The notes under the pieces are model-generated. The model saw only the letters and a list, made by a program, of their open reading frames with translations, had not been told where the DNA came from and searched no databases. Shown piece after piece: positions 10,712 to 35,892 of a stretch of 37,316 nt of DNA (position 1 is the stretch's first letter; every line of letters starts with the position of its first letter). The stretch lies in IMG/VR virus record IMGVR_UViG_2537561977_000024. The stretch is one strand, 5' to 3'. The translations under genes and the position numbers were made by a program. This stretch comes from a virus (taxonomy: Duplodnaviria > Heunggongvirae > Uroviricota > Caudoviricetes).

Positions 10712-10738
10712 GATCATCCCCCTGAATAAAAACCGGAG

Positions 10739-11236: not shown

Positions 11237-12604
11237 TGAAACCAGTACTTGACGACAATGGACTGGCTACCTATGCCGGAAATATTCGCTGTTATTACTA
11301 CGATGAATTAACAGGTGAATACACTGGTTGGTCAGATGAATTTATTAATGTAGGTGTGAGCATGCCCGGAAATTCTACAGATATTGACCCAGGAGAAGAT
11401 ATATCGGGCAAAGTGTCAGTATTTAGCGGTGACGGATGGAATTGGCAGGAAGACCATCGAGGCAATACTGTCTATTCAACAGAAGAAGGAGCCGCCAGCG
11501 TAGTTGACTACATCGGTGAGATTAAAGAAGGATTTACCGCAATTGCGCCGGGAACAAAATACGATAAATGGGACGGGGAAAAGTGGGTAACGGATAGTGA
11601 GGCTCAGCACATAGCCGATGTTGCAACCGCCGAAGCGGAAAAACAGGCCAGAATTGACCAGGCCAATAACTACATTAACAGCAGACAATGGCCCGGCAAA
11701 GCCGCTTTAGGCCGCCTGAGTGACGCAGAAAAAGAGCAATATAATCTGTGGTTGGATTATCTCGATGCGCTGGAAGCCGTGGACACCTCCAGTGCACCAG
11801 ATATTAACTGGCCTACTCAGCCTGATAATCGGGAGCAGGCTGAGTAAATGCGGCGCCATCGTATAAATACCCCGACTCAACGTCATCAGGACAATTAACC
11901 CAAACCAACGAGGGGTGGAAACGCCCCTCCGGATCTACATCTACGGTTTCTTCAACGCGAAAGTTTTCTTTGCCTTCAATTTTTTAATTCTTGCCCATGT
12001 CATTTAATCACCACTCAATAATCACAATACCATTTTTACCAGAGCCGGATTTATTACTACTGTTAGCAGCAATCCCACCACCACCGCCCCCATAACCAGT
12101 CGCATCCAGACCCACCCCTGTAGATCCTCGGCCTCCGGGGCCGCCACCGTTGCCGCCGCAATTTGCCGAGTTGGCTGAACCGTCATCCCCCCAACCCAAC
12201 CCCTGATTAACATCTCCGCCAACACCGGCTCCCGACGAACCACCGGATGTTGATGTGCCGCCATACCCATACTGACCACCAGTCGCGGAGAGATAAGAAC
12301 CAAAAGAAGATGACCCACCGGATGCGCCATTACCTGTAGTTACGCCAGCACCAGCAGAGCCAACGGTTACCGTAACGCTTGAAACGTCTGTGAGATCGAG
12401 AAGCAATTTCGAATATCCGCCACCGCCGCCACCGCCCCCGCGCTTTGTTGTATCGGTAGTCGACCCGCCAGACGCTCCACCACCAATTACTGTCACCTGG
12501 CATTTTCGCCCTTGTTGGAGTGCCTCAGGAACGTTCCAGTTAGATACTCCAGGGGTGTTGAAAACAACTATGTTTTGCAGGCCAAAGGCCGATGCTCCTA
12601 AACC
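10780..12604. other. invertible tail-fibre DNA segment (G-segment-like), ~1.8 kb
   Basis: Bounded by inverted gix-like sites; adjacent invertase; two alternative fibre tips in opposite orientations. Confidence 0.6.
11236..11847 (+). CDS. tail fibre assembly chaperone (U'/G-like) for the silent cassette
   Basis: 203-aa ORF immediately after the Sv'-like cassette; position and length typical. Confidence 0.75.
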   Translation: MKPVLDDNGLATYAGNIRCYYYDELTGEYTGWSDEFINVGVSMPGNSTDIDPGEDISGKVSVFSGDGWNWQEDHRGNTVYSTEEGAASVVDYIGEIKEGFTAIAPGTKYDKWDGEKWVTDSEAQHIADVATAEAEKQARIDQANNYINSRQWPGKAALGRLSDAEKEQYNLWLDYLDALEAVDTSSAPDINWPTQPDNREQAE

Positions 12605-13654: not shown

Positions 13655-14256
13655 GGATTCACTCTCATTGTGTCAATAACATGGACCGCCCCGCCTTCAT
13701 GCGCGGTGCCGCCGGAAATAATTGTTTCGTTGATATACGGATAGATCGTGATTTCTTCGCCAAGATAACTGGCGGCTCCCACCCAATGCGGACCGCTGGT
13801 CTGCAGATTGATGGACATGCCGATCATGTGACGGCTACATGGTTTGGCATCGCTTATCAGTCGCTCAAGTTCCAGATAGGTATCTTCAGTGATGCCCTGG
13901 TCCTGCACACCAATGTCCAGACGAAACGTGCCCGGTGTTTCTCCGGTCTGCCACCACTCAATAATGCGGATCAGGAAGCCGAACGGCTCCACCACCCGCC
14001 GTACGGCACTGGTGGTTCCTTTGTGCTGATGAATATAAAAAGCATCCTTCACTACCTGGCGTTTGACGCTTTCTGTCCAGCCCTCGTCCCAGCGATCCAC
14101 AGAGAACGCCCAGGCGAGATAAGGCAGGAAACTGACCGGACAGGTTGCCGGATTCCACAAGTCACGCAGTGACACCTGCAGATCAGAAATCCCGCTACAG
14201 GTTTGCGCCAGTCGGCGCTCCAGTGGCGTTGAACCCGGTGGCAGCAGACTATTCAT
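13651..14256 (-). CDS. I: baseplate assembly protein I
   Basis: N-terminus and WNP...LPYLAWAFSVDRWDE motif like P2 gpI. Confidence 0.85.
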   Translation of the reverse strand: MNSLLPPGSTPLERRLAQTCSGISDLQVSLRDLWNPATCPVSFLPYLAWAFSVDRWDEGWTESVKRQVVKDAFYIHQHKGTTSAVRRVVEPFGFLIRIIEWWQTGETPGTFRLDIGVQDQGITEDTYLELERLISDAKPCSRHMIGMSINLQTSGPHWVGAASYLGEEITIYPYINETIISGGTAHEGGAVHVIDTMRVNP

Positions 14257-15157
14257 CCGTTCCCCCGTTGGTCACGCTCCACTGAGTACATGATGCCGCC
14301 TGCGTTTTGTTCAGGACCACATCAGCCAGCGGTGAAGCCAGCTCCACACGTTGAACACCCTCAACATGCAGCGCGGCAAAAATAGCACTACGGCGAATAT
14401 CCCGACCGAGCCGCGTCTGACTGGCGATGTACCTCTGCAGGCTGACTTTTGCCGCTGCCATTACCGGCTCTGCTTCCGGTCCCGGATAAAGAAAAATGGT
14501 AGCTTCCACACGGTACGGGATGATTTCTGCGCTGCGAACCGTCAGACGGTCAGCCACCGGGCGGACGTTCTCACTGTTCAGGGCTTTCTCCACCACATCC
14601 AGCAAGTCTTTTTCTGCTGTTCCGTCGCCTTCACGACTCAGGACAGTCAGTACCACCTCTGCAGGTGCCGGACTGGTTGCACTGGCATCCGCCACCCGAC
14701 CGTCGGCGCTTCGGGCATGAAATTCATAAGCGGCAGTTGGCCCCGCAACAGAAAGCCCTTCAAAGGCTGCAGGCACACGCAGGCGTAACGCTTCATCGCT
14801 TTCCATCACAGCCGCAACGGGTGGCACAGCGTCATTATCAGCAGGCGTCACCGTCAGGCGTTTCACGTTGTAGTTGGCAGCGAGCTGGTCAAGATCGCCG
14901 CCCATCGCGTAAGCCACCATCACAGCCTGCGCGGCTTCGTTAATGCGCTGGCGCAGAAGCAACTCACGGTAAGCGTTCTCCTGCAGCAATTTGGTGACGG
15001 GTTCAGATTCCAGTTCCAGCGTGCGGATCACGGCTTCCTGCTCATCTTTCGGATGAAGCACAACAAATTCGGCCTTGCGTTCGGCAAGCAGCGTCTCAAA
15101 GTCCGGCACATCGACAATCTGCGGCGCAGGCAACTGCGAAAGGTCAATCACTGCCAT
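14249..15157 (-). CDS. J: baseplate protein J
   Basis: Begins MAVIDLSQLPAP like P2 gpJ (ORF track start 15196 trimmed to this Met). Confidence 0.85.
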   Translation of the reverse strand: MAVIDLSQLPAPQIVDVPDFETLLAERKAEFVVLHPKDEQEAVIRTLELESEPVTKLLQENAYRELLLRQRINEAAQAVMVAYAMGGDLDQLAANYNVKRLTVTPADNDAVPPVAAVMESDEALRLRVPAAFEGLSVAGPTAAYEFHARSADGRVADASATSPAPAEVVLTVLSREGDGTAEKDLLDVVEKALNSENVRPVADRLTVRSAEIIPYRVEATIFLYPGPEAEPVMAAAKVSLQRYIASQTRLGRDIRRSAIFAALHVEGVQRVELASPLADVVLNKTQAASCTQWSVTNGGTDE

Positions 15158-15503
15158 TCTCTGCTCCTGTTGATACGGAAAGGGAAACAGGCACACCGTT
15201 ATTACGCCGCCCGGTCAGCCCCACCACCATTGAACCGTCAAAATTGCTTTTAATGGTGATGGAATCCAGCGTCAGCCGTGGCTCCCAGCGACTCAGCGCC
15301 ACATACACTGCCGACATGACCTGCAGGCGTAATGCCGGATTTTGTGGCTGGTCTATCAGTGTCGACAGCAGGGAACCATATTCACGACGGGCAATGCGGC
15401 AACCCTGCGGTGTCAGTAGAATGTCCCGCACCGACTGACGCAGATGGTCAATATCAGTAATGGCTTTACCGCTGGTATTGTTCATCCCGATATAAAGCGT
15501 CAT
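15144..15503 (-). CDS. W: baseplate wedge protein W
   Basis: 119-aa ORF, motif REYGSLL..IDQPQ like P2 gpW. Confidence 0.85.
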   Translation of the reverse strand: MTLYIGMNNTSGKAITDIDHLRQSVRDILLTPQGCRIARREYGSLLSTLIDQPQNPALRLQVMSAVYVALSRWEPRLTLDSITIKSNFDGSMVVGLTGRRNNGVPVSLSVSTGAENGSD

Positions 15504-16078
15504 ACCGGGCCTCCGGTTGTATCGCCGCCTTTCAGGACGCCAGTATGCTGATGCGCATCAACCACGATCCCGTTAGAACTCATCGCTCCGCCGCCCTGGG
15601 TAACGCCACCATTGATCACCACTTCGCTGTTAATGCGCGTGCGGTCAGCCTCCAGTACAAACTCACTGGTTTTCATGGTGATGTTGTCAGCGGCCTCAAT
15701 GACCATTGATTTGATGCCCCTGACATACCAGCGCCCGGTGGCGGGTTCGTATTCAAACCAGCCACCGTCAGGATGTTCTGTCACGCAGGCGTCCGCCGAC
15801 GTCGACGGTGGTGCGAACTGATTCGAATAGACAGCGGGCAGCGCAAAGGCGGTTTCCAGATTGCCGCCCAGACTCAGCAGCACCACCTGCTCACCTTCCG
15901 ATGGTCGCCACCATGTGCGGGCATTCCCGGCACGCAGCGTCAGCCAGCTGATCCAGTTGGTTTCAAGCTCGCCCGTTTTCACCCGGCAAAGCCAGTTTTC
16001 CCTGTCCACTTCGGTGACTACCCCAGTGCGGATCAGGTTGGTGATAAGGCGCATGATTTCGGTTAATTGTGCGTTCAT
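15500..16078 (-). CDS. V: baseplate spike protein V
   Basis: 192-aa ORF with P2 gpV-like N-terminus and TWWxPSxGEQV motif. Confidence 0.85.
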   Translation of the reverse strand: MNAQLTEIMRLITNLIRTGVVTEVDRENWLCRVKTGELETNWISWLTLRAGNARTWWRPSEGEQVVLLSLGGNLETAFALPAVYSNQFAPPSTSADACVTEHPDGGWFEYEPATGRWYVRGIKSMVIEAADNITMKTSEFVLEADRTRINSEVVINGGVTQGGGAMSSNGIVVDAHQHTGVLKGGDTTGGPV

Positions 16079-16124
16079 AGGGAAAGGTTGCCATCAGGGG
16101 AAGAAAGGCGGCAGTGCTGCAACT

Positions 16125-16142
16125 TGTATCAGTGCTGATACA
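16125..16142. promoter_or_regulatory. TGT-N12-ACA late-promoter activator site (PV-like)
   Basis: Perfect dyad TGTATCAGTGCTGATACA in the S-V intergenic gap. Confidence 0.5.
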
Positions 16143-16146
16143 AAGA

Positions 16147-16593
16147 TCACCCCGCCAGCCATTGCAGAATCATGTCGCTGGTCATTGCCTCAACATCATC
16201 ATTTACACCCAGCAGGCGGCGCTCTGCGTAACGGACCTCCGGTCCTTTGCGACTGACGCGATCACGCAGGCCGTAATGGTGAACACGGGCAATACGCTGC
16301 ACCTTGCCTTCAAACTGTACGCTGGCAGAGTCGGCGCTGGCGGCAGTTTTCAGGTATTTTGTGGTGCGCAGCTTTGCAAACATCTGACGTTTGATGCGGC
16401 CTTTTTTGCTGCGTGCTGTTACCCTGCGCGGTTCATAACTGCTGCCATCTGGATTGCGCTGCATCCTGATATTCTGCTGCTGTGTCCGGCGCAGTTCCTG
16501 CGCCAGCTGGCGCATCATGCGGCTTCTCGTGGCTGGTTCCAGATTCGCCAGCAAGGCACTCAGCCAGTCGTCCACCTTCTGCAGTTCAGCCAC
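16147..16593 (-). CDS. S: tail completion protein S
   Basis: 148-aa ORF; synteny and length like P2 S. Confidence 0.8.
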   Translation of the reverse strand: MAELQKVDDWLSALLANLEPATRSRMMRQLAQELRRTQQQNIRMQRNPDGSSYEPRRVTARSKKGRIKRQMFAKLRTTKYLKTAASADSASVQFEGKVQRIARVHHYGLRDRVSRKGPEVRYAERRLLGVNDDVEAMTSDMILQWLAG

Positions 16594-17038
16594 GTTTCAC
16601 CGTCCACATTTCTTCAGGTTCATCGGGTTCTGCTACAGCTTCAACGCTCGACACACTGCCGTCAGTACTGACCAGCACACGTTCCGTCAGTTGCAGGTTA
16701 AGGCTGATATCACAGACATCGTTGCGCAAAATATCCACCTCAAAGGTGAATAGCTTTTCCCGTAACGCCGGGTTATTGATGGCATCGGGCTGGTTATCCC
16801 GAAGCCACAGTAAAACCGGGGCCATCAGCAGATTCTGGTCGCCGCTGAAATCCTCTATCACCACGTTCAGGGTATAGCGGTACTCCCATGACATGGAGCT
16901 GGCCCCCGTGGCAACCAGCGAACCGTTATCCACAAACAGATGCAGTTTGTCCGGGTTATTGCGGACATAAGGCACCGCTTTATTGAGGGCGTGGCGCAGG
17001 GATTGTGGTTTATTCACTGTTTCGCTCCTGACACGCAA
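16586..17038 (-). CDS. R: tail completion protein R
   Basis: 150-aa ORF; synteny and length like P2 R. Confidence 0.8.
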   Translation of the reverse strand: MRVRSETVNKPQSLRHALNKAVPYVRNNPDKLHLFVDNGSLVATGASSMSWEYRYTLNVVIEDFSGDQNLLMAPVLLWLRDNQPDAINNPALREKLFTFEVDILRNDVCDISLNLQLTERVLVSTDGSVSSVEAVAEPDEPEEMWTVKRG

Positions 17039-17270
17039 TAATCATGTCCACTTTGTCTGCACAGACCGCCCAGGCGGCCTCCGTTTCATCCAGCAACGCG
17101 TTCAGGTCACCGTTAGTGCGCGGCGCTGCCTGCCCCAGCCGACACGGCGTCACTCGCGGACAACCACTGACGGTAAGCTGCACCTCGGGTGAGTGTGGGG
17201 CGTTCCCGCAACCGGATAATGTCAGCAGGCAAAGGAGTATCAGCCCAGCGGCGTAAATCCTCGTTCTCAC
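17010..17270 (-). CDS. lysC: Rz1-like outer-membrane spanin lipoprotein (LysC)
   Basis: Signal peptide ending in lipobox LSGC; overlaps lysB 3' end in another frame. Confidence 0.65.
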   Translation of the reverse strand: MRTRIYAAGLILLCLLTLSGCGNAPHSPEVQLTVSGCPRVTPCRLGQAAPRTNGDLNALLDETEAAWAVCADKVDMIIACQERNSE

Positions 17271-17541
17271 GTTTCAGTTCCTCAATCCGGTGTTGTCGTT
17301 GTCTCAGCAGTACACTGGTCTGTTCTGCTTCGGCATAGAGCCGCGCCTGCTCCCGGTTATTGGTTTCAGTCAGAATGGACAGGCTGATAAGCTGGCTGTT
17401 GCTCTTTGCCAGTGCCTGGCTTTTGCTCCGAAGCTCGTCTGCCTGCGTGCTGATGGTCTGGCTGGCATCAGCCAGCCGCCACGTCTGCCAGCCCAGCGCC
17501 GCCAGTAATAACGCCAGCACAACCAGCAGCAACCGGTTCAT
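17113..17541 (-). CDS. lysB: Rz-like inner-membrane spanin (LysB)
   Basis: N-terminal TM helix then coiled-coil region; position after lysA. Confidence 0.7.
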   Translation of the reverse strand: MNRLLLVVLALLLAALGWQTWRLADASQTISTQADELRSKSQALAKSNSQLISLSILTETNNREQARLYAEAEQTSVLLRQRQHRIEELKRENEDLRRWADTPLPADIIRLRERPTLTRGAAYRQWLSASDAVSAGAGSAAH

Positions 17542-17915
17542 GCTGCTACCTGTTGCGCCATCTGATTACGGATCATCCAGAAGGCAATAACGGTCAGCAG
17601 ATAAAAGACCAGGGTAATAGCCCACCCCGTCCAGGCGAAACTTACGACAATCAGCAATCGCATCACCCAGCTGATAAATACGTTTTCTTTTCGGGTAATG
17701 GTCTTCAGCAAAGATGCCCTCAACTCCTGCCAGAGCGGGCCGTTCTTAATTAACGCAGCCAGTGCTACCGGAATTACCGCCCATGTCAGCAGACAGGCTA
17801 CCCAGACACCGGACGCTGCCAGTACCGGAAAAATCCCCTGTGGATACACCATTGCTGCGATCAACAGCGCCATCCATAACATCAGAAACAGCCCGCTGAT
17901 TACTTTCTTTTTCAT
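17538..17915 (-). CDS. lysA: LysA-like multi-pass membrane lysis regulator
   Basis: Start set at MKKKV with GGGAG SD 9 nt upstream, 1 nt after K stop; ORF track extends it to 17987. Confidence 0.6.
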   Translation of the reverse strand: MKKKVISGLFLMLWMALLIAAMVYPQGIFPVLAASGVWVACLLTWAVIPVALAALIKNGPLWQELRASLLKTITRKENVFISWVMRLLIVVSFAWTGWAITLVFYLLTVIAFWMIRNQMAQQVAA

Positions 17916-17916
17916 T

Positions 17917-18429
17917 TCAGTTTGCTCCCTGTAAGCACCAGGCCATCTCCCGCGCACGGCGGTTATCCAGCCCCTGATTAAAAACACCTTTCACATAAAC
18001 CCAGCGCGGCAACTGTCGGCACGCATCCGCCCAGCGCCGCTGATTGAGTAATTTCACCAGTGTGGAACTGCAGGCATTGCCCGTTCCCACGTTGAAGGCA
18101 AACGACACCGCAGCGTCATACACCTTCTGCGGCGGCTGTTGCTTCACACACCTTTCCAGCGCCCGCTCCACACGCAGCACGTTGGAGATCAGCCCTTCTG
18201 CTGCCTGTCGCTCCGTAATGGTTTTGCCGGGAATGACGCCCGACGTATTACCAATGCCGTCGGTCCAGACACCCGCGCTGCACTGATACGGCTGCAGACG
18301 ACAGCCTTCGTAATCAGCAATCAGTTTCAGCCCCTCCACGGAGGAGTGAAGCTGCTGAAAACCCGGCAGCGTGGCAGCAATAGCCAGCACGGCCCCGACA
18401 AGGCAGCGTTTAACGATTGATGGATTCAT
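17917..18429 (-). CDS. K: lysozyme-type endolysin with N-terminal SAR (signal-anchor-release) segment
   Basis: T4-lysozyme-like motifs (EG..L.AY, NVGTGN) preceded by weakly hydrophobic N-terminal helix, like P21 R. Confidence 0.85.
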   Translation of the reverse strand: MNPSIVKRCLVGAVLAIAATLPGFQQLHSSVEGLKLIADYEGCRLQPYQCSAGVWTDGIGNTSGVIPGKTITERQAAEGLISNVLRVERALERCVKQQPPQKVYDAAVSFAFNVGTGNACSSTLVKLLNQRRWADACRQLPRWVYVKGVFNQGLDNRRAREMAWCLQGAN

Positions 18430-18625
18430 AGTCCTCCCGCGAGATCTGCCCGTCGCGCAGAAGCTGGTAGGCTTTGTGTTTGTAGTACCAGTTGATAGCC
18501 AGCATCAGTACACCAATCATCAGGCCGCCCAGCGTTGAGGCATCCTTGATGGACAAATCGCCCAGCCAGGCCAGCACGACGGCGATGCAATACGTGATAA
18601 AGGCGCTGATTCGCTCAAGCGTCAT
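18410..18625 (-). CDS. Y: holin (pinholin-like, two TM helices)
   Basis: 71-aa ORF with two hydrophobic helices and charged C-terminus immediately upstream of endolysin. Confidence 0.7.
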   Translation of the reverse strand: MTLERISAFITYCIAVVLAWLGDLSIKDASTLGGLMIGVLMLAINWYYKHKAYQLLRDGQISREDYESINR

Positions 18626-18628
18626 AAT

Positions 18629-18832
18629 TCAGTCCCATAGCTGGACGGTCTGCACGGTGGTGGTTGTCAGAATGTCCGGCAGCTCCACCTGCAGCCCGTG
18701 AGGTAAAAAGGGGCCGTATTCGGCAAGCCCCGGATTTGCCTTCAGTACCTGCTCCGTGACACCCTGCGTGCGCCCGTAATGACGCCAGCAAAGCGCGTCC
18801 ACCGTGTCATACTGATGCGCACGCACTTTCAT
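18629..18832 (-). CDS. X: tail protein X
   Basis: 67-aa ORF, same size and position as P2 gpX. Confidence 0.8.
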   Translation of the reverse strand: MKVRAHQYDTVDALCWRHYGRTQGVTEQVLKANPGLAEYGPFLPHGLQVELPDILTTTTVQTVQLWD

Positions 18833-19296
18833 CAGATAAGCTCCACTGTGCAGTGCGGCGCATCCTGCACCCGGCTGATGGCCCAGCGGGCGTCACGCCA
18901 CAAATCACCGCTTGCTTCCGCCAGTTCCTCGCCCCGCTTCACACCGGACGCCGTGGCGTCATAGTCCTGATAACGCTCGTTGAGCATGGCGCGTGCCCAG
19001 CAGTAAACCGCGTTGAAATAGTGCTGAATGCGCTCACTTTTCCCGTCCAGCAGTTCCGCCGGAACCTCAGCCAGCGACGCATACCCCAGCATCTGCTGAC
19101 GTCTGCGAAACTCATACAACTCAGCGTTGACCTCCGAAATTGCCGACAGGGCAACCTGCTTTAAACGCGGCTGCGTCACCGTGCCGTCAGTGCGCATGAC
19201 ACTGCGAAACTCCGACAGGTCCACATCAGGCCAGAACGGCGTATTTCTGATGATTTCCGCCTGTTCCGGTGCCTGTTCTGGCGCAACAAACTTCAT
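18832..19296 (-). CDS. L: capsid completion protein L
   Basis: Start set at MKFVAPEQ with AGGAGA SD; C-terminal WRD.RWA..R.Q motif like P2 gpL. Confidence 0.8.
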   Translation of the reverse strand: MKFVAPEQAPEQAEIIRNTPFWPDVDLSEFRSVMRTDGTVTQPRLKQVALSAISEVNAELYEFRRRQQMLGYASLAEVPAELLDGKSERIQHYFNAVYCWARAMLNERYQDYDATASGVKRGEELAEASGDLWRDARWAISRVQDAPHCTVELI

Positions 19297-19391
19297 GCTG
19301 CTTTCTCCTGAAATAGAGGGCGGTGGACGGGGTTTTGATGTGGCAGTGCCTTTCGCCACCCCGTGCCGCCTGTGCGCGGGGGCACGTTCTG

Positions 19392-20042
19392 TCAGCGGCT
19401 GTCATTGCGCAGTCTGCGCTCCAGCTGCTGTTTGTCTTTTTTCACGCCACAGCGGGGATCGAGCTGTAACGCATGGTTGAGATGATTAAGGGCGGAAGCC
19501 GGGTTGCTTTCACTCAGGACAGCGCCAATCGCTTTATGCAGACGCGCCCGTGACTGGTCCGGCATATCCAGACCGTCTGTCAGCTCCAGCGTCTGCAGCA
19601 ACAGATCGGCATCAAAGCCGGTGGCGGCAAGCATTGCGCTCTGCGCGGCGTCTGCCATTTCCTCTGCCAGCACGGTCTGCACGTTGCGGTTACCCAGCGG
19701 CATCACCCAGCCATGACGCAGGGCATGACGCCCAATCTCCAGCGCCCCGGCATAATCTCCGGCATCAATGCGCCACAGCATCACGTACATCAGCACGTCA
19801 TCCTGTTGAGCGCCTCCGGCAGCCAGGACGCCCTCCGCCCAGGCGGCATATTTCGGCAGCAGCTCCACCTTGATTTCCGCTTTTTTCACCGTGGACTGAA
19901 CGCCCTTGAGACGGCGGCGGTCTTCCGCCAGTTGCAGCAGCATCAGGTCATAGCCCGACGCGTGGCGAACACTGCCGCCCTCGCGGGCGGCCTGTTCAGC
20001 CTGAACACGCAGGCGATGCTGCCGTGCGGGACTCAGGCTCAT
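19392..20042 (-). CDS. M: terminase endonuclease (small) subunit M
   Basis: 216-aa ORF; synteny between N and L. Confidence 0.8.
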   Translation of the reverse strand: MSLSPARQHRLRVQAEQAAREGGSVRHASGYDLMLLQLAEDRRRLKGVQSTVKKAEIKVELLPKYAAWAEGVLAAGGAQQDDVLMYVMLWRIDAGDYAGALEIGRHALRHGWVMPLGNRNVQTVLAEEMADAAQSAMLAATGFDADLLLQTLELTDGLDMPDQSRARLHKAIGAVLSESNPASALNHLNHALQLDPRCGVKKDKQQLERRLRNDSR

Positions 20043-20045
20043 GGA

Positions 20046-21104
20046 TTACGCTCCGGTTTCTGCTGCGGCGGCGCTGAAGTCGCCAATCTGGATGTTTTCC
20101 ACCAGTGCGGCGCAGCGGTAGTCCTCAACCACATAGGCTTCGTTAACGGATTCAAAATTTTCAATCCGGTCACGTTTCGGGTTGTCGATAACTGAACGGC
20201 GGCGGGTATCTTCCTGCCAGTAGATGGACAGGTTATCCAGACGGGTGATCAGCAGCGCATTCGGCGGGAAGAACGGCGCACGCACGGCCTGCAGGCCCCC
20301 CATGCGCTTCTGACTGATGATCATATCGGCAGCCAGTTTTTCACTGTTTTCCTGCTCTTTGTTGACCAGCGGGAAATACTTGTCAGACAGCAGTTCACGG
20401 CCGCAAATCACCACCAGATCGTCATCGTCCTGGTAGACCACGTCGATAAGCTCATTGACGGCATCCATCACCACGGCGTCCAGGTTGGCATATTCGCCAC
20501 CTTTCCCGACTTTCACCGCGCCCGGTGTGGTTTCACCGCCCGTGGTGGTGCTGCCCATGACATGATCCGGTGCATCCTCACGGATTTTCTGCAGCCAGCC
20601 TTTGTTCACATCCTGCAGCAGCGGGTTTTCACTACGGTTGGAGGTTTTCGCACGCTTCAAGCCGTTAAAGCCGATCATGATGCGGTCCAGTGCCTGACGT
20701 TTCACGATGGCGTCACGGATACGCACCTGGAAATCCTGAAACTTCGCCCACAGGTCCAGCTTCGCGTAGGTCAGCACCGTGTCAAAGTTGGTCTGCTCGC
20801 ATTTATATTCCACATCGACCATCAGCGTCGGATCGACAGGTTCACGCTCTTTCGCGGTGGTGTCAGTGGTTCCGGCAATGGTGCTGCCAACACCCAGCCC
20901 CAGCAGCTGACCGGACTGCTCAGTCACTGGCGTGACGTTAATCAGCGTCAGGAAAGCGGCGGACTGCTGGATCTGGTCTTCCAGCGTCTGCTGCACAGAC
21001 GGCTCCACAGTGAATTTGCTGGACAGTTCTTCAACTGCCACACCGTTCAGACGCGCCAGCTGCTGCAGGTAAGCGTTAAAAGCAAAGCGGGTATTCTTCT
21101 TCAT
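20046..21104 (-). CDS. N: major capsid protein N
   Basis: 352-aa ORF; length and position like P2 gpN. Confidence 0.9.
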   Translation of the reverse strand: MKKNTRFAFNAYLQQLARLNGVAVEELSSKFTVEPSVQQTLEDQIQQSAAFLTLINVTPVTEQSGQLLGLGVGSTIAGTTDTTAKEREPVDPTLMVDVEYKCEQTNFDTVLTYAKLDLWAKFQDFQVRIRDAIVKRQALDRIMIGFNGLKRAKTSNRSENPLLQDVNKGWLQKIREDAPDHVMGSTTTGGETTPGAVKVGKGGEYANLDAVVMDAVNELIDVVYQDDDDLVVICGRELLSDKYFPLVNKEQENSEKLAADMIISQKRMGGLQAVRAPFFPPNALLITRLDNLSIYWQEDTRRRSVIDNPKRDRIENFESVNEAYVVEDYRCAALVENIQIGDFSAAAAETGA

Positions 21105-21120
21105 CGGGTTTTGTGCTCCA

Positions 21121-21953
21121 TCAGCAATTGGTCAGAGTGTCAGCGGGGGCGTTACCGCCTGTTGCACGCTGGCGGTAGTCCTGGCGGCTGTCTTCATGAC
21201 TCAGCTTGTCCACCAGTTCGTTAAAGGCGGTTTGCTGTGCCTGCAGGGCAGTCTCCAGCTCAGACAGGCGTTCTTCCTGCTCAGACAGGGATTTTTCGGT
21301 GCGTGCGCTCAGATTCTGCTGCTCAGTGGCGACCAGCTCCACGGCCTTATGCACATCAGAGAACCGGGCGTCATCGGACTGCTCTTTTTGGTAAACAGCG
21401 CCGTGACGCGGGCAAACAGGGACGGTTTGTCGTCCTGGATTTCTTCCAGTTCGATCACCGTTTCCTCTGCAGCGGTAAAGAGATTGGCAGGATTCTGCTT
21501 GCGGTTTGCCAGCGGGTTATGGGCTGCACTGGCGCTGAATGTCAGCATTTCCGTACCCAGACTGGCAGGGTCATCAGTGGCAGCCAGGCCGACCAGGTAG
21601 GCTTTGCCCGTATCAGCGAACTTCGGGCTGACTTCCATAGAGGTGAATAATTTCTGGCCTTTTTTCACCAGTTCCACCAGGGACTCCGTTGGCTCAACGT
21701 CGGCATACAGCGCCATCTTGCCTGCCAGCGGACCTTCCGTGATTTCTTCAGCAAACAGCGCCGTCACCTTGCCGTAGCGGTTAAAGGTGCTGTCCGGCAG
21801 ATAAGACTTGATGTGCTCAAGGTTAATCAGCGCGGTATACACCGCCGGGTTGTAGCTGGCTGCCATCTGTTCCAGCCATTCACGCTGGATTTCGCGTCCG
21901 TCGGTGGTGGCACCTTCCACCCCGATGCGAAAACGCTTTGCTTTCACTGTCAT
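21121..21953 (-). pseudogene. O: capsid scaffold gene O interrupted by a single-base frameshift
   Basis: Two ORF pieces (21309..21953 and 21121..21354) in different frames; joining at the A5 run 21385-21389 restores a ~278-aa gpO-like protein. Confidence 0.75.
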
Positions 21954-22031
21954 GAGCCGTGCTCCGTTAGAAAAAACTTACTGGAGCCTTATGGTTGCGG
22001 TGATGGGGGCAGTGAAACAATGCGCGGTATT

Positions 22032-22049
22032 TGTACCGACAACCACACA
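22032..22049. promoter_or_regulatory. TGT-N12-ACA late-promoter activator site in divergent O/P region
   Basis: TGTACCGACAACCACACA, close in sequence to the site upstream of FI. Confidence 0.5.
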
Positions 22050-22095
22050 AACCGCAGGCGGGGAAAGCCTTCATTCAAGGCTGTAGGTTTGTGCC

Positions 22096-23862
22096 ATGAA
22101 CACCACACTGACACCCGCAGATCTCGATCCCCGTCGGCAGGCCATGCTGCTGTACTTTCAGGGATACCGCGTCGCCCGCATTGCTGAAATGCTGGGCGAG
22201 AAAGTTGCAACCGTTCACAGCTGGAAAAAACGCGACAAGTGGGGTGACTATGGGCCGCTGGATCAGATGCAGCTCACCACCGCCGCACGCTACTGCCAGC
22301 TCATCATGAAGGAGCACAAAGAAGGGAAAGATTTCAAAGAGATTGACCTGCTGGCGCGCCAGTCTGAGCGCCACGCGCGGATCGGCAAGTTTAACAATGG
22401 CGGCAACGAAGCCGACTTAAACCCTAACGTCGCCAACCGCAACAAAGGCCCACGCCGTCAGCCTGAAAAGAATGTTTTCACCGATGAACAGATTGAGAAG
22501 CTGGAAGAAATCTTCCATTCCTCCATGTTCAACTACCAGCGCCACTGGTGGGAAGCCGGAAAAACCAACCGCATCCGCAACCTGCTGAAGTCACGCCAGA
22601 TCGGCGCGACCTTCTATTTTGCCCGTGAAGCCCTGATTGACGCCCTGCTGACCGGACGTAACCAGATTTTCCTTTCCGCCAGTAAGGCACAGGCCCACGT
22701 CTTTAAGCAGTACATCATCGACTTTGCCAAAGAAGTGGAGGTGGAGCTGAAAGGCGATCCGATGGTGCTTCCTAACGGGGCCACGCTTTACTTCCTCGGC
22801 ACCAATGCCCGCACTGCCCAGAGTTACCACGGCAACCTGTATCTGGATGAATATTTCTGGATACCAAAATTCCAGGAACTGCGCAAAGTGGCTTCCGGTA
22901 TGGCTATTCACAAGAAATGGCGACAGACCTATTTTTCCACGCCATCCAGCCTGACACACAGTGCTTATCCGTTCTGGTCCGGTGCACTGTTCAACCGTGG
23001 GCGCAACAAAGCCGATAAGGTGGACATCGACCTGTCCCACAGCAATCTGGCCCCCGGCCTGCTGTGCGCAGACGGGCAATACCGCCAGATAGTCACCGTG
23101 GAAGATGCGGTGCGCGGCGGCTGTAACCTGTTCGACCTCGACCAGCTACGCATGGAGTACAGCCCGGACGAATACCAGAACCTGCTGATGTGCGAGTTTG
23201 TGGACGATCTCGCGTCCGTGTTTCCGCTCAGCGAGCTGCAGGCGTGCATGGTGGACAGTTGGGAAGTCTGGACCGACTTTCATGCACTGGCGCTGCGCCC
23301 GTTTGGCTGGCGCGAAGTGTGGATCGGTTATGACCCGGCAAAAGGTACGCAAAACGGCGACAGCGCCGGATGCGTGGTGGTGGCACCGCCAGCCGTGCCG
23401 GGTGGTAAGTTCCGCATTCTTGAGCGTCACCAGTGGCGCGGGATGGACTTCCGCGCCCAGGCTGACGCCATCAAAAAACTTACCGAACAGTACAACGTGA
23501 CTTATATCGGTATCGACTCAACCGGCGTTGGTCACGGGGTTTACGAGAACGTGAAAGCGTTCTTTCCTGCCGTCCGGGAGTTTGTCTACAACCCCAACGT
23601 TAAAAACGCCCTGGTACTCAAGGCCTACGACATTATCAGCCACCGCCGTCTGGAGTTTGACGCCGGACACACCGACATTGCGCAGTCATTTATGGCAATC
23701 CGTCGCGCCACCACCGCCAGTGGCAACCGCCCGACCTATGAAGCCAGCCGCAGCGAAGAAGCCAGCCACGCCGATCTGGCATGGGCAACGATGCACGCAC
23801 TGTTTAACGAACCGCTGCAGGGCGAATCCGCCAATACCAGCAATATTGTGGAGATTTTTTGA
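22096..23862 (+). CDS. P: terminase large (ATPase) subunit P
   Basis: 588-aa ORF beginning MNTTLTPADLDPRRQAMLLYFQGYRVA like P2 gpP. Confidence 0.9.
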   Translation: MNTTLTPADLDPRRQAMLLYFQGYRVARIAEMLGEKVATVHSWKKRDKWGDYGPLDQMQLTTAARYCQLIMKEHKEGKDFKEIDLLARQSERHARIGKFNNGGNEADLNPNVANRNKGPRRQPEKNVFTDEQIEKLEEIFHSSMFNYQRHWWEAGKTNRIRNLLKSRQIGATFYFAREALIDALLTGRNQIFLSASKAQAHVFKQYIIDFAKEVEVELKGDPMVLPNGATLYFLGTNARTAQSYHGNLYLDEYFWIPKFQELRKVASGMAIHKKWRQTYFSTPSSLTHSAYPFWSGALFNRGRNKADKVDIDLSHSNLAPGLLCADGQYRQIVTVEDAVRGGCNLFDLDQLRMEYSPDEYQNLLMCEFVDDLASVFPLSELQACMVDSWEVWTDFHALALRPFGWREVWIGYDPAKGTQNGDSAGCVVVAPPAVPGGKFRILERHQWRGMDFRAQADAIKKLTEQYNVTYIGIDSTGVGHGVYENVKAFFPAVREFVYNPNVKNALVLKAYDIISHRRLEFDAGHTDIAQSFMAIRRATTASGNRPTYEASRSEEASHADLAWATMHALFNEPLQGESANTSNIVEIF

Positions 23863-24899
23863 TGGGAAAGAGTAAGAAGAACCGAGCTGCGGCGACGAAA
23901 CAGATCCAGCTTAAAAGTCAAACTACAGCCGAAGCATTCAGCTTCGGCGATCCCGTTCCTGTTCTGGACCGCCGTGAACTGCTGGACTATGTGGAATGCG
24001 TACAGATGGACCGTTGGTATGAGCCGCCCGTCAGCTTTGACGGACTGGCGCGCACCTTCCGCGCCGCCGTGCATCACAGTTCCCCGATTGCAGTAAAGTG
24101 CAACATTCTGACCAGTACCTATATCCCTCATCCGCTGCTCAGCCAGCAGGCTTTTTCGCGTTTTGTGCAGGACTATCTGGTATTTGGTAACGCCTACCTG
24201 GAGAAACGCACGAACCGATTCGGTGAAGTTATCGCCCTTGAGCCTGCCCTGGCAAAATACACCCGACGTGGATTAGACCTGGATACCTACTGGTTTGTGC
24301 AATACGGCATGACAACGCAACCGTATCAGTTCACGAAAGGCAGCATTTTTCACCTGATGGAACCGGATATCAACCAGGAGATCTACGGCCTGCCCGGTTA
24401 TCTTTCTGCCATTCCGTCAGCCCTGCTCAACGAGTCCGCCACGCTGTTCCGTCGAAAGTATTACATTAACGGCAGTCATGCAGGCTTCATCATGTACATG
24501 ACCGACGCCGCGCAGAACCAGGAGGATGTAAACAACCTCCGTAACGCGATGAAAAGCGCCAAAGGACCAGGTAACTTCCGCAATCTGTTTATGTACTCGC
24601 CTAACGGCAAAAAGGACGGACTTCAGATCATCCCATTGTCAGAAGTCGCGGCGAAGGATGAGTTTCTGAATATCAAAAATGTCAGCCGCGATGACATGAT
24701 GGCAGTGCACCGTGTGCCACCGCAAATGATGGGGATTATGCCGAATAATGTTGGGGGGTTTGGGGATGTGGAGAAGGCAAGCCGTGTATTCGTCCGAAAT
24801 GAGCTAATGCCACTACAAAAGCGATTACAGGAGATGAATGATTGGCTTGGCAAGGAGGCGATACGGTTTGATACCTACTCGCTAGATATAGCCCCATAA
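23859..24899 (+). CDS. Q: portal protein Q
   Basis: 346-aa ORF overlapping P stop; length like P2 gpQ. Confidence 0.9.
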   Translation: MMGKSKKNRAAATKQIQLKSQTTAEAFSFGDPVPVLDRRELLDYVECVQMDRWYEPPVSFDGLARTFRAAVHHSSPIAVKCNILTSTYIPHPLLSQQAFSRFVQDYLVFGNAYLEKRTNRFGEVIALEPALAKYTRRGLDLDTYWFVQYGMTTQPYQFTKGSIFHLMEPDINQEIYGLPGYLSAIPSALLNESATLFRRKYYINGSHAGFIMYMTDAAQNQEDVNNLRNAMKSAKGPGNFRNLFMYSPNGKKDGLQIIPLSEVAAKDEFLNIKNVSRDDMMAVHRVPPQMMGIMPNNVGGFGDVEKASRVFVRNELMPLQKRLQEMNDWLGKEAIRFDTYSLDIAP

Positions 24900-24903
24900 T
24901 AAG

Positions 24904-24930
24904 AAAAGCCACCGTTTGGTGGCTTTTCTT
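24904..24930. terminator. bidirectional hairpin terminator between Q and the cargo operon
   Basis: aaaagccacc-gttt-ggtggctttt between convergent genes. Confidence 0.6.
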
Positions 24931-24933
24931 CAT

Positions 24934-25674
24934 TTACTCAATAGGTTCAAACTCATCTTGAGGAATCAGCGTCGATTGACAGGCTTGGCTTAGTACCCCT
25001 GATAATTTACATAATAACCGATAGTTATGAGGAGCATCATCGCTAATCTTTTCGACCGTTAAAGTGATTGATTTTGGATCATCCAATAACATCTTCTTGA
25101 TGTCATTACTTAAATACCTAGGGCAGTAACCAACGATTTCAGCTGGTTTATCTGCACGAACGACAACAGCATCCCCATCGTATTCATTTTGAAGATCCAA
25201 GCAAAGACGCAAAATTTGCCCCGGTTTCAATTCAGATACACGAGCATTAGCTAAGCTATTCAAGTAACCAAGTCCATGTAAGAAGAAAAAATGCTCAAAG
25301 TTACCATCAGAATCAAAATCAATTTTTTTGAAAATCTGCAGCTGATCAGTGCTTCGTAAGCCTCCCGAGCGAGCAAGAATATCGATAGGATTTACCTTAT
25401 CTTCTTCAAATCCAAGCCATTTAATGAAACTCGGATACTCTGGACGTCTCGGTGATAAAAGGCGATTTTTAAAAAGAGGAAACAATTCTTCCGATACATA
25501 AGTTTCACGAACATCACTCATGCCGCTAAACTTTGTAAATTTAGAAGATTTAAGAGCACCTTTGGTATACCTGAAAACATACCCCGATTTGCGCTCTTGC
25601 AAGTTACCAACAACATGCCAGTCTCTGGTATCTGGTGCCTGCCATGCGACGTAAACGGAGTTTGTATTAGTCAT
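24934..25674 (-). CDS. HipS-like N-domain fused to C-terminal HIRAN-like domain
   Basis: N-terminal VGNL..FRY...LFPLFKNRLLSP resembles HipA N-subdomain; C-terminal LRLCLDLQNEYDGDAVVVRA...VGYCPRYLS..IKKMLL fits HIRAN consensus; start overlaps kinase stop (ATGA). Confidence 0.6.
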   Translation of the reverse strand: MTNTNSVYVAWQAPDTRDWHVVGNLQERKSGYVFRYTKGALKSSKFTKFSGMSDVRETYVSEELFPLFKNRLLSPRRPEYPSFIKWLGFEEDKVNPIDILARSGGLRSTDQLQIFKKIDFDSDGNFEHFFFLHGLGYLNSLANARVSELKPGQILRLCLDLQNEYDGDAVVVRADKPAEIVGYCPRYLSNDIKKMLLDDPKSITLTVEKISDDAPHNYRLLCKLSGVLSQACQSTLIPQDEFEPIE

Positions 25675-26585
25675 TCTAGTAACCTTCTGCGATTTTCCAT
25701 TACCATTAACGTTGCAAATCTACGTGCACTGTCGGATATACACGATGAAGGCACTTGGTTAAACACATCTGTAATGGAATCTTCTGTTAAAACGCTCAAC
25801 TTACCTAACCAATGGTCGCGAGCGGCAACTCTCCCTTCAACTGCATGTTGAAATGCTTCAACAGTCAGCAAGGGCTTTTTATCAGTTTTTGCTTTGAATA
25901 GCTCAGAGCGAGCTTTTCTTACAAAACATGGGATTTGTCGATTTTTATCTTTAGTATTAAGCCGTTCGTTACGCTCATCATCTAACATCTCCCTTCCTAA
26001 ACTAGCGGCATGATCGTATGTTGGACACAAAAACTGCTCACCAGTTTCATTGTTAAGCATGATTGCCCAATTTTCATGGTGGCGATCTTGATTACTCACA
26101 AGTGCATCGAGCATCAAATATCCACAAAATACATCTGCTGCATTTAGCCCGGTTAGATCATATACACTCGGAGGAGGCTTGATAGATTCCCTATCTAAAC
26201 AACCCAAGACCCTTGTGACAGTGTGTTCTCTGACCCTTACCGGCTTTTCCCCGGCTTGTAAAGGCCCAGGATAATCGAATGTCGAACTGTGAAGCACTTC
26301 ATTTCCCATTACCATCCGGAAACCAGATGGAATGATATTCTGAGTCACCACACCGAATCGACCATTGTATCGCGCCAAATCATAGCTAGCATGTGGAATG
26401 TTAAGCAAATGACATAACTCAGCAGCACACTTTTCAGACCAATGCTCGCCAGTACCTGGCCTAGAGTACTTAAACAACTGCAAATTTACAGTGTCATCGG
26501 AGAAATAGAACCAAAACTTCTCTTTGGTTCCTAACTGTTCAAGATCGTTAGCTACGGGGCTAAGCTCTACCAATTGGTATGGCAT
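25671..26585 (-). CDS. HipA-family Ser/Thr kinase core (HipT-like, lacks HipA N-subdomain)
   Basis: Gly-rich loop LGTKEKF at residues 18-24, catalytic VSNQDRHHENW (D167), PTYDHAAS (D191), with HipA-like spacing. Confidence 0.7.
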   Translation of the reverse strand: MPYQLVELSPVANDLEQLGTKEKFWFYFSDDTVNLQLFKYSRPGTGEHWSEKCAAELCHLLNIPHASYDLARYNGRFGVVTQNIIPSGFRMVMGNEVLHSSTFDYPGPLQAGEKPVRVREHTVTRVLGCLDRESIKPPPSVYDLTGLNAADVFCGYLMLDALVSNQDRHHENWAIMLNNETGEQFLCPTYDHAASLGREMLDDERNERLNTKDKNRQIPCFVRKARSELFKAKTDKKPLLTVEAFQHAVEGRVAARDHWLGKLSVLTEDSITDVFNQVPSSCISDSARRFATLMVMENRRRLLE

Positions 26586-26679
26586 CTGACATCCCTGTTT
26601 AGCGGATTATGAATAAGTTAGGTTCCATTTTATCCAAACATTGTCAAATACCCTAAGATTTATTAGATGATAGAGCGAT

Positions 26680-26697
26680 ACTGTATGTATGTCCAGC
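26680..26697. promoter_or_regulatory. possible LexA box upstream of kinase operon
   Basis: ACTGTATGTATGTCCAGC: CTG-N10-CAG with one canonical CTGTAT half-site; ~100 bp upstream of 26585 start. Confidence 0.3.
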
Positions 26698-26737
26698 AAT
26701 CAAATCAATATATAACTCTTATATGGCTTAACGCGCG

Positions 26738-26756
26738 CTCGTATCCCCGCCACGCC
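26738..26756 (-). other. candidate cos cohesive-end site
   Basis: Minus-strand GGCGTGGCGGGGATACGAG resembles P2/186 cos 19-mers as recalled (first 13 nt match the 186 form). Confidence 0.4.
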
Positions 26757-27142
26757 TGCCCGCTTTATGTAGTGGTTTTCATGCACTTGCATGACATAAA
26801 CAAAAGCCCGCCATTCCTGGCGGGCCTCAACTAAAACGATCTTCAAACGATCATGCGAATTCATGCGGCATAGACATGCATTGTTGCTTTATCGATCTTT
26901 TCTTACTTCAAGTGAGTCCTTATGGCCTCCTGTCCACCTTGCGCTGCGCGTTCCCCCTGCCTCCCTTTGTCATAACTTAGATTTAATCCTCATAAATCAA
27001 GAGGTACTACACAAAGTACCAACTCACAACACTCAACAAACAGCCAATAATGAGCATAATACTAACTTGACTACTCCATAAAAAAATACGTAAACTACAT
27101 TCATCAACAGTATTTCTCTAAAAAAGACGGGGTCACAATTCA

Positions 27143-27623
27143 ATGGCTACTACCAACTGTATTACTGTACTTACTGCTCGTGGTTTAACAGAGATTTTGA
27201 ACACAGGGGGAAGCCAAGCATGGAGACTTGACGCCAGCCATGCAGCTAAGCACGAATATTTAGTTTGTGTACAAAATTCGAGAAAGGACTGGGGATCACA
27301 AGAAGCAAAACATCATCATGCTTTTATGATCGGTCGAATCTCGGGAGTAAGCAGGGCTCCAGAAAACCCTAAACGCTGGATCATAAACATCAATTCTTAT
27401 GCTGAAATTGACATCCCAGGACAATGGGATGGCAATCGGAATCCCGTTTCTTATCGCAACCTCAAAGACATTGGCATTGAGGCTGACAAGTTGGAATTTA
27501 AAGCTCTTCCCAAATTAACCCCGACTAATTCGATTGTCGATCAAGCGGGTGATGAGTACGAAGAAGAAGAAGAAAATGTAGTTAAGCCGTTAACACTTCA
27601 GGAGGCAAAAGCAGGGCTAGCCC
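27143..27623 (+). CDS. hypothetical protein, 3' end replaced by IS insertion
   Basis: ORF after 550-bp AT-rich region; acidic DEYEEEEEN linker; reading frame runs into IS left end at 27624; original C-terminus continues after IS at 28927. Confidence 0.5.
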
Positions 27624-28917
27624 CTGAGGGATCCCCAGAAAATTTAGTAAACCATTATCATATTGGTATACCGTTGCTGTAGAACTTTCAGCCCTGCGTC
27701 AAGTGACAGTGTGTTTAGTATGAGTGGAGAATGTCGAATCACATTCTCCGCCAGTTTTAATAACGAGATGACTCGCCTGTGCTTCACTGTATTTGCCTGA
27801 TATTTATGATGTATCCCTTTGTTTTCCAGGCTGAAACCGCTTAACCACATAATGATACTGGCTAATGTTGCGATCAGACTCAATACCGTGACCCGCCCGG
27901 ATGAATGACTGGCACCAAACCGTAGTCCAAATCCCCAGCGAGGATTTTTTTCATCCCTGAAATTTTGCTCAATTTGCATTCTACGGCTGTATAATTTCAT
28001 TACCTGTTTTGGCGAGAACTCAGTACTGTTTGTGAAAATAAACCATGGTGATTTCCCGGCAGTACGAGCTTTAGCCGTCACCGATGGTCTGGTTGCTCTT
28101 TCCTTCGAGCGTTTAAATCTACGACCTTTAGGCTTACTTTTATAAAGATAAAAATGCCCTTCATGTTGTGCATTTTTATCTCGACCCAGCAGGCCTTCAC
28201 CTAAATAAATTGCTGTCGTTGATGCTTTTGTGCCTGAGTCCGACACCTTTTCCCAGCCATTACCAACATTGTAATAATGATTGCCCAGTACCCGGCAAAT
28301 ATAGGTCCAGCCACGGGAGCGGAGCTGTTGGAACCATCGCCCCTGAAAACCGGCATCTGTAATAACAATGACATCAGTCCCGGGGGAAAAGCACTCAGCA
28401 AGCGATTCCAGAAAACGCTCATGTACATCTGCATTCGCTGTCTGTGATGATGGAACGACACAACTCATCAACGGTAAAGAACGCCCGTCACATGCCAGGC
28501 TTGCCCGCAAAAGCTGAAAACGAGAGGCATGATAAGCACTCCAGTCAATGAGTATCACAACACGAGACATTCCCCGCGTAATCTTTTGGGTAATTCGCTG
28601 AAAAATGGTGGAAACCTCATTTTGCAAATGTCGATTCCCCAACAGTCGATCCACCCGCTTTATTTTGTTTTTAACTGATGCCGTACCGGTTAAATGACGC
28701 CCGATACTGGTAAGTGTGAGGGAAGCGCCATTTATTACAGCATTAGTTGCGTCAATCAGTGATTTTTGACGGTAAAGATGCAAAGGGGCCAGTATGTTGT
28801 TAAGGAAATTTTGGCATAATGAACGTGCAGGCATAGTGGTGATCTCCTTGAAATTGTTAGCACAATCAATTAGATCACATCTCACTATGCCTGTCTTGTT
28901 TTCTGGGGATTCCTCAG
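27624..28917. mobile_element. IS10-like insertion sequence (IS4 family)
   Basis: Terminal inverted repeats CTGAGGGATCCCCAGAAAA / CTGAGGAATCCCCAGAAAA; flanked by direct repeat GGCTAGCCC (27615-27623 and 28919-28927). Confidence 0.8.
27644..28834 (-). CDS. IS10-type DDE transposase
   Basis: Motifs KRVDRLLGNRHL, TDAGF, YSRRMQIEQNFRDEK align with IS10 transposase as recalled; start set at MPARS. Confidence 0.85.
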   Translation of the reverse strand: MPARSLCQNFLNNILAPLHLYRQKSLIDATNAVINGASLTLTSIGRHLTGTASVKNKIKRVDRLLGNRHLQNEVSTIFQRITQKITRGMSRVVILIDWSAYHASRFQLLRASLACDGRSLPLMSCVVPSSQTANADVHERFLESLAECFSPGTDVIVITDAGFQGRWFQQLRSRGWTYICRVLGNHYYNVGNGWEKVSDSGTKASTTAIYLGEGLLGRDKNAQHEGHFYLYKSKPKGRRFKRSKERATRPSVTAKARTAGKSPWFIFTNSTEFSPKQVMKLYSRRMQIEQNFRDEKNPRWGFGLRFGASHSSGRVTVLSLIATLASIIMWLSGFSLENKGIHHKYQANTVKHRRVISLLKLAENVIRHSPLILNTLSLDAGLKVLQQRYTNMIMVY

Positions 28918-29243
28918 GGGCTAGCCCTATACTTTGGTGTTAATGAAGAAAATATTCAAATAACTATACAAGGTTAAGGCTTTTAAACCGGCATAAGTGG
29001 CCATTACTTTTCGTTCGAAGTGGCGCTTCCGGTCTAACAAGCATCTAATAGGATTTTCGTATCTATCACAAATCCCAAAAGGTAATTTGCAGCCCATCAT
29101 ACGTAGCAAAACTAACGTTCGGTTAAATCTGAGCGGAAGTGAAAATAATGGTTACTGTATTTTACCCCATGACTAATGCCCCACTAAACTAGTTGTTCAA
29201 CGTTGCTGACGTCAGAAGCAAGTTCAGACGCCAGCAACGTTTC

Positions 29244-29477
29244 TTAATGCAGCCAGCTGTCGTCTTCCCACACCTTCTGCATAATTTTCATCACTTGTTT
29301 TCTTTCTTCGTCCAGTTGCAGTCCGGTCAGTTCCACACCATTAGAGCTACCTTTACGGATACGAATTACCGCTTTGGGATACAGGGGGCGCAGATTGCGG
29401 TAAAGCTCGGATTCAAGGGCGTCCAGGGTAGACTGGCTAATTTTCTGCTCTTTATCGATCATTATTTCAATGCGCAT
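29244..29477 (-). CDS. DinI-family protein (186 Tum C-domain-like)
   Basis: MRIEIMIDK...ALESEL...KIMQKVWEDDSWL parallels DinI; GAGGTGA SD before this Met; ORF track extends to 29549 without SD. Confidence 0.75.
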   Translation of the reverse strand: MRIEIMIDKEQKISQSTLDALESELYRNLRPLYPKAVIRIRKGSSNGVELTGLQLDEERKQVMKIMQKVWEDDSWLH

Positions 29478-29716
29478 AAAAGTCACCTCAACTGATGACA
29501 TCCATTGAGCGGCTGTATTCGTGGATTCTGATCTTTGCCATGAGTTCATCAGTCAATTCAGAAACCCACTGCAGGGCCAGCCCCTTCTCTTCATCACTAC
29601 ACTCACTAGCCGCTACAAGCTTAAGAAAAAATCAATGCGCTGGAGCTTCAAAGACTCCAAAAAATAGTCCTGCATTTTTCCTCCTATGACACCACAAGCA
29701 ACACTGTATGCATAAC

Positions 29717-29736
29717 CACTGTTTATATTTACAGTA
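29717..29736. promoter_or_regulatory. LexA box (SOS operator)
   Basis: CACTGTTTATATTTACAGTA, near-consensus CTGT-N8-ACAG, ~240 bp upstream of DinI-like gene. Confidence 0.65.
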
Positions 29737-29827
29737 TATAATAATCTTACTGATGTAAAACGTTTTTTACATTCATCAGCATGATATGCTTGGTATTATT
29801 AAGAGCACGAATTGTTAGCCCGCGGAA

Positions 29828-33096: not shown

Positions 33097-33320
33097 ACAG
33101 CACCTCCGTTGTAATGTTTGCCTTTCAGCTCTGCGATTTCCTGGCAGGTAATGCAAAGCTGCACTCCCGGAATGGCGCGGCGTCGTGCTGGCGGAATTGG
33201 CGCTTCACATTCAATACAAAGCACGCGAGACACGCCCGGTGTTTTGGCACGGGCAGCACGAATATGGCGCTGGCGTTCTTCTTCAACGCGCTGCTGTACG
33301 AGATCCATTGCATCAGCCAT
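33093..33320 (-). CDS. TraR/DksA-family C4 zinc-finger protein
   Basis: CIECEAPIP...CITCQ four-Cys pattern in 75-aa ORF. Confidence 0.7.
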   Translation of the reverse strand: MADAMDLVQQRVEEERQRHIRAARAKTPGVSRVLCIECEAPIPPARRRAIPGVQLCITCQEIAELKGKHYNGGAV

Positions 33321-33559: not shown

Positions 33560-33620
33560 TTCTCCTGAATTTAGATAAAGGGATGCCCGGCGGGTTTACG
33601 CCATTAATTTCATTAGTTGG

Positions 33621-33962: not shown

Positions 33963-33984
33963 ACTTCATATCCCCCAAACGCAG

Positions 33985-34902: not shown

Positions 34903-34957
34903 CTCCGAACTTATCGCAAAATCGAACTCAGCGTCTTATTGCGAAAATAGACGTCTA

Positions 34958-35876: not shown

Positions 35877-35892
35877 TACCGGGAGGAAAACT

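Follow-up and report, generated by a model that had tools for sequence, protein, structure and literature searches.

An apparent split of the capsid scaffold gene O in a P2-like prophage of Escherichia coli LT-68 and its probable origin in an under-called homopolymer

The prophage and its gene order

The window, by which we mean the whole stretch of 37,316 nucleotides that was analysed, comes from the draft contig ADUP01000041.1 of E. coli LT-68 (GCA_000188815.2). It contains a P2-like (Peduoviridae) prophage of about 34 kb, which is integrated beside ybjL. The left host flank is short, with grxA, ybjM and ybjL at positions 1-2620, and the proteins that these genes encode are 100% identical to those of E. 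coli. The order of the head genes, with M, N and O on the minus strand and P and Q on the plus strand, is the one found in P2, and gene O is located between the divergent genes P and N. The coordinates of these genes and of the other features discussed below are collected in Table 1.

Table 1. Features of the window. Positions are those of the whole stretch; strands are given where assigned.
Feature	Position	Strand	Remarks
ogr	2859-3074		left end of the prophage; tail and head genes come next
Recombinase gene (resolvase/invertase family)	10145-10717	-	adjoins the invertible segment
Tail-fibre segment	~10776-12606		invertible
T6 run	11980..11985		7 bases in L031; intergenic, within the invertible tail-fibre segment
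lysC (Rz1-like spanin)	16983-17228	-	early stop
M	19392..20042	-	
N	20046..21104	-	major capsid protein
O	21121..21953	-	gpO capsid scaffolding protein / prohead serine protease, from PF05929 and gene position; two frames as deposited
Downstream ORF of O	21121..21354	-	77 aa from GTG; C-terminal scaffolding domain, about P2 residues 205-284
Upstream ORF of O	21309..21953	-	214 aa; gpO residues 1-190 (protease domain and linker), after which 24 out-of-frame residues lead to a stop
A5 homopolymer	21385..21389	-	ACC AAA AAG AGC; frame change after residue 190; relatives have A6, ACC AAA AAA GAG
P	22096..23862	+	terminase; divergent from O
Q	23862..24899	+	portal
Cargo pair	24934-26585	-	246-aa HIRAN-domain protein and 304-aa protein
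A7 run	27080..27086		A8 in L040; intergenic; A6 or A7 in more distant sister prophages
176-aa gene	27143..		3' end lost to ISEc60
ISEc60	27624-28917		IS4-like, 1294 bp
62-aa gene	29488-29675	-	flanked by gene A and the DinI-like gene
Second contraction	29626..29631	-	6 bases vs 7; the conserved 62-aa gene (29675..29488) is left with 20 codons before a stop
Third contraction	29763..29768		T6 vs T7 in L042; in the intergenic stretch that separates gene A from the 62-aa gene
Integrase	36273-37316		right end of the prophage

The remaining late genes are full length and devoid of internal stops, the only exception being a C-terminal stop in lysC, and a search for independent decay lesions in the other late genes found none. 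The full length of these genes fits a functional phage, and apart from the split in gene O the prophage is otherwise intact. In comparison with the lysC of the relative L005, the one in the window ends 10 codons early (...QERNSE, then the stop). This stop results from a substitution common to near-identical sister prophages and so looks like natural variation.

Three other parts of the prophage may be noted. Firstly, ISEc60 has inserted in the cargo region, where it is flanked by a palindromic 10-bp duplication, GGGCTAGCCC; it is 100% identical to other E. coli copies, and the 176-aa gene next to it loses its last ~17 codons. The sister prophages L016 and L023 do not have this insertion, which is common to the clone-mates described below, whose contigs break at both junctions. 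Secondly, two cargo genes separate the portal gene Q from the DinI-like gene, and both have matches in PDC-M03, a candidate defence system of PADLOC (E = 7e-93 for M03B and 2e-122 for M03A). They sit at a known P2 hotspot position, and in other relatives the same spot carries different cargo (TIR, AIPR, RES, reverse transcriptase). Thirdly, the tail-fibre segment is invertible: the same 1.8 kb lies the opposite way round in the clone-mate L031, and short crossover sequences overlap at both of its ends. At the same ybjL site, three other E. coli strains (L022, L024 and L029) carry remnants with large internal deletions, which begin inside or behind O/X and reach gene U or ogr.

Gene O as deposited and its relation to P2 gpO

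In the deposited sequence, gene O is spread over two reading frames. The upstream ORF (frame 1 of 21953..21121, with its ATG at 21953) begins with MTVKAK, and the part of it that is in frame ends with ...ALFTKK, at a run of five A on the coding strand that reads T5 on the plus strand (...ggactgctc TTTTT ggtaaac...). When the gpO of an intact relative was used as a tblastn query, its residues 1-190 were found in frame -1 with 98.4% identity and its residues 189-277 in frame -3 with 97.8% identity. A DNA alignment with two relatives contained a sole one-base gap, which falls in the A run, with A5 in the window vs A6 in the relatives.

Both fragments match the PF05929 (Phage_GPO) profile above its Pfam gathering score of 33.6, the first over profile positions 2-188 (E = 2.5e-92, 309.7 bits) and the second over positions 198-268 (E = 8e-10, 39.2 bits). 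The addition of one A yields a gpO of 277 aa, which also scores above this cut-off and matches positions 2-268 in one stretch (E = 3.7e-113, 378 bits). A continuous protease-scaffold ORF is absent from the deposited sequence and present in the clone-mates, as it is after the addition of one A. The split is real in the deposited sequence, far beyond chance. The initial annotation had identified the gene as a P2-type gpO, and this identity is borne out by PF05929 on both fragments and by the P2-like gene position. It had also placed the frame change at the A5 run, where the coordinates, the tblastn frames and the gap in the alignment all locate it, and its proposal that one more A would give a continuous gpO-like ORF holds, with a product of 277 aa and a single profile match.

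Aligned end to end, the repaired protein and P2 gpO share 45% identity. In P2, residues 1-141 of gpO form the prohead protease, with S107 as the catalytic residue, the S107A mutant being protease-deficient, and residues 195-284 form an internal scaffolding domain, described as "absolutely required" if P2 procapsids are to assemble (PMC7552001). We observed that S107 of P2 (in YTSME) aligns with Ser105 (in FTSME), which is kept in the 214-aa ORF. The two proteins also share the domain order, from protease through linker to a coiled C-terminal scaffold, the C-terminal ...TNC motif and the position of the gene between divergent P and N. They differ in length, 284 aa in P2 vs 277 aa in the repaired protein, and in the deposited sequence the frame is lost after residue 190, which corresponds to K193 of P2. 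Closer relatives are found among Wadgaonvirus-type E. coli P2-like prophages (Escherichia phage 500465-1 and the clone-mates L040 and L038), with 99.6-99.7% DNA identity across O, but these have A6 and a single ORF of 834 nt, whereas the window has A5 and 833 nt. Judged from its sequence, and leaving the broken frame aside, gene O belongs to the GPO family as an ordinary representative, with nothing new about it.

The A run in relatives and clone-mates

The initial annotation had called for a comparison with the O genes of related prophages, and had considered that the two-ORF arrangement might be kept in functional relatives. We carried out this comparison and observed that it is not so: the relatives have A6 and an intact O, and essentially all of them have one ORF of 277 aa. 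Indeed, the run is six bases long in all the relatives that were fetched, except for the error-rich assemblies L003 and L004. In the whole collection, the exact 214-aa product is confined to one contig, ADUP01000041.1 of E. coli LT-68 (protein EFZ57856.1). Among complete E. coli genomes carrying the 81-bp stretch, an exact A5 match was found in 1/806, that of FLI21, in a count by identity band that covers exact matches, the rows listed and the fetched loci, "A5 plus one substitution" and A6 being otherwise inseparable in it; the other E. coli genomes among the matches listed have one base more than A5. An exact scan of the GTDB species representative genomes for the A5 24-mer gave 0 matches, and in IMG/VR this 24-mer is present in one contig only (UViG 2744054627_000009).

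Outside LT-68, A5 is therefore encountered only in visibly error-prone assemblies. The FLI21 prophage is located at a different site (ssrA), so that the A5 event there is independent, and within the same 40 kb two further genes, that of the portal protein and ypjA, carry the annotation "frameshifted". The IMG/VR contig has ~26 homopolymer deletions in 8 kb. Since A5 recurs in FLI21 and in this error-rich contig, the A6 run is a recurrent miscall site. The LT-68 contig resembles these two cases of homopolymer consensus error in that A6 has become A5 at the same run, with frameshifts or contractions nearby, but it is much cleaner than the error-rich assembly L003. In the sister prophage L023 (CP065611.1), at the equivalent of window positions 20876-20881, three substitutions and a one-base deletion are clustered in gene N, and N is uncalled there; this cluster reflects a local error or else a lesion of that genome.

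The closest comparison is provided by the clone-mates, independent assemblies from other samples that have the same ISEc60 insertion junctions and that were retrieved via neighbouring proteins. Look-ups with gpD, N and A led to the LT-68 contig or to clone-mates, the 347-aa form of the integrase led to sister prophages and not to the LT-68 contig, and its long ORF form matched short metagenome contigs only. L040 (Logan SRR13627092) covers window positions 13046-27648 in 14,605 nt and reaches 25 nt into ISEc60 at the same junction. Aligned with the window, it shows 1 substitution and 2 gaps, one in the O run (6 vs 5) and one in the run at 27080 (8 vs 7); its gpO has 277 aa, and its gene O is identical to that of the window except for the A run. 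On the other side of the insertion, L042 (GCA_018229165.1) covers positions 28925-37316 (8,392 nt) and ends at the other IS junction, with 0 substitutions and 2 gaps, both of them in homopolymers (29626-29631 and 29763-29768, each 7 vs 6). In L031 (GCA_012769395.1) one further run, at 11980-11985, has 7 bases vs 6 in the window, and the LT-68 contig is matched at 100% identity by L034 (Logan SRR2994196) along 17,377 nt, comprising tail genes and host flank. The Logan contig of SRR040460, a run that may be the LT-68 read set, agrees with LT-68 everywhere but at one homopolymer. Over the 42.2 kb compared with the clone-mates there are in total 2 substitutions and 5 indels, every indel being the loss of one base from an A/T run in LT-68, with 0 expansions.

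In the LT-68 host flank outside the window (L033, 19646-20599), potH, which encodes 317 aa in other strains, is also in two pieces, of 223 and 86 aa. Both pieces lie in one frame, suggesting an in-frame stop, and since the potH split is also present in the independent Logan contig L034 it appears to be a true mutation of this clone, unlike the gpO split.

We also examined how the contractions are distributed with respect to run length. Runs of A or T of 4 nt (0/270) and 5 nt (0/84) were never contracted in LT-68, whereas contraction affected 1/38 of those of 6 nt, 3/10 of those of 7 nt and 1/3 of those of 8 nt; among G/C runs of 4-6 nt there was none (0/149). The discrepancies thus amount to ~1 per 8 kb and are found only in A/T runs of at least 6 bases. 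Two of the other short alleles are rare or absent elsewhere: that at 29626-29631 has an exact match in only 2 of ~1101 E. coli genomes, and that at 29763-29768 in 0/1060. The 62-aa gene that the former interrupts is intact in L042 and in ~1100 E. coli genomes.

Origin of the split and its meaning

The indels outnumber the substitutions, all of them are losses, they are restricted to long A/T runs and their frequency climbs steeply as the runs become longer; such a pattern is the signature of homopolymer under-calling. We infer that the LT-68 discrepancies are base-calling errors and not mutations. On the basis of these sequence comparisons, the gpO split is probably an assembly artefact, with a probability that we put at roughly 0.85, the true gene being a continuous ORF of 277 codons. 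One A of the A6 run would have been under-called in the LT-68 draft, which we take to be a 2010-era pyrosequencing draft, so as to produce the apparent two ORFs, and at least four further A/T runs, 6-8 bases long, would have been under-called in this region as well. The real gene O would then most probably be continuous and the prophage not disabled at this point. An error is favoured because A5 is private to LT-68 while the clone-mates have A6, and because it comes with more one-base A/T contractions and few substitutions. Two observations have to be set against it. The 17.4 kb of the LT-68 contig that are identical to L034 indicate an error rate that is moderate and not pervasive, and real slippage mutations likewise favour long homopolymers. 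The initial annotation had left the choice between a homopolymer sequencing error and an inactivating mutation; the first of these is favoured by the private A5 and the A6 of the clone-mates, and the second now seems unlikely.

This second reading deserves nevertheless to be considered. Replication slippage in the A6 run of LT-68 would have produced a true one-base deletion, cutting gpO after residue 190; the protease domain and the linker would be kept, the whole C-terminal scaffolding domain would be gone, procapsids could not assemble and the prophage would be head-defective. Such an event has some plausibility: the frame change stands in the deposited sequence, homopolymers are natural slippage hot spots, the prophage also took the ISEc60 insertion, and prophages at the same locus decay elsewhere, L022, L024 and L029 having large late-gene deletions. 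Moreover, the break comes just before the P2 domain 195-284 that is needed for procapsid assembly (PMC7552001). However, A5 is private to one assembly, and A6 is found in the clone-mates that share the IS junctions. The A5 run is also accompanied by four other one-base A/T contractions, with only 2 substitutions in 42 kb. In mutation accumulation experiments with E. coli, substitutions still outnumber indels several-fold even in mismatch-repair mutators, in which bases are gained (+1) as well as lost (-1). The ratio of indels to substitutions in LT-68 and their single direction are therefore unexpected from mutation, even in a mismatch-repair mutator. As the other occurrences of A5 are all in error-rich assemblies, we consider a genuine deletion to be improbable, although it is the more serious of the two alternatives.

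Still less can be said for a real A5 that is tolerated, either by a -1 slippage on C-AAA-AAG (tRNA-Lys moving from AAG to AAA) or because the two domains work as separate polypeptides, which we regard as very improbable. Read from the sequence, a -1 shift at AAA-AAG would give the exact wild-type T-K-K-E-Q, A-AAG motifs are shift-prone in E. coli, and the break coincides with a domain boundary. In this respect the site resembles programmed -1 sites such as A-AAA-AAG in dnaX and those of phage tail chaperone genes (E/E+E' in P2), which have the same AAA-AAG lysine pair at the frame-restoring point. Contrary to those sites, it has neither conserved two ORFs nor a stimulatory structure nor a full slippery heptamer: the relatives have one ORF, C-AAA-AAG is only a partial heptamer and not a canonical X-XXY-YYZ, the downstream 90 nt are less stable than shuffled controls (-23.6 kcal/mol vs a shuffle mean of -29.2, z = +1.7), and no Shine-Dalgarno-like stimulator is visible upstream. 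A programmed -1 frameshift was rejected on the grounds that the arrangement is not conserved and that there is no stimulator. In addition, the scaffold is required in stoichiometric amounts, for which slippage at the percent level would be insufficient, and separate synthesis of the C-terminal domain meets the difficulty that the downstream ORF lacks a convincing ribosome-binding site.

If the deletion were true after all, it would represent ordinary prophage decay, with loss of the scaffolding domain needed for P2 procapsid assembly. With an under-called A run as the favoured origin of the split, the finding is mainly a matter of quality control: in the LT-68 draft (ADUP01), long A/T homopolymers are under-called about once in every 8 kb, and genes that are "frameshifted" at A/T runs of at least 6 bases in this draft should consequently not be taken as biology before the reads have been checked. 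This caution covers gpO as well as the 62-aa gene of the early region, and to name the prophage defective from its gpO would probably be wrong.
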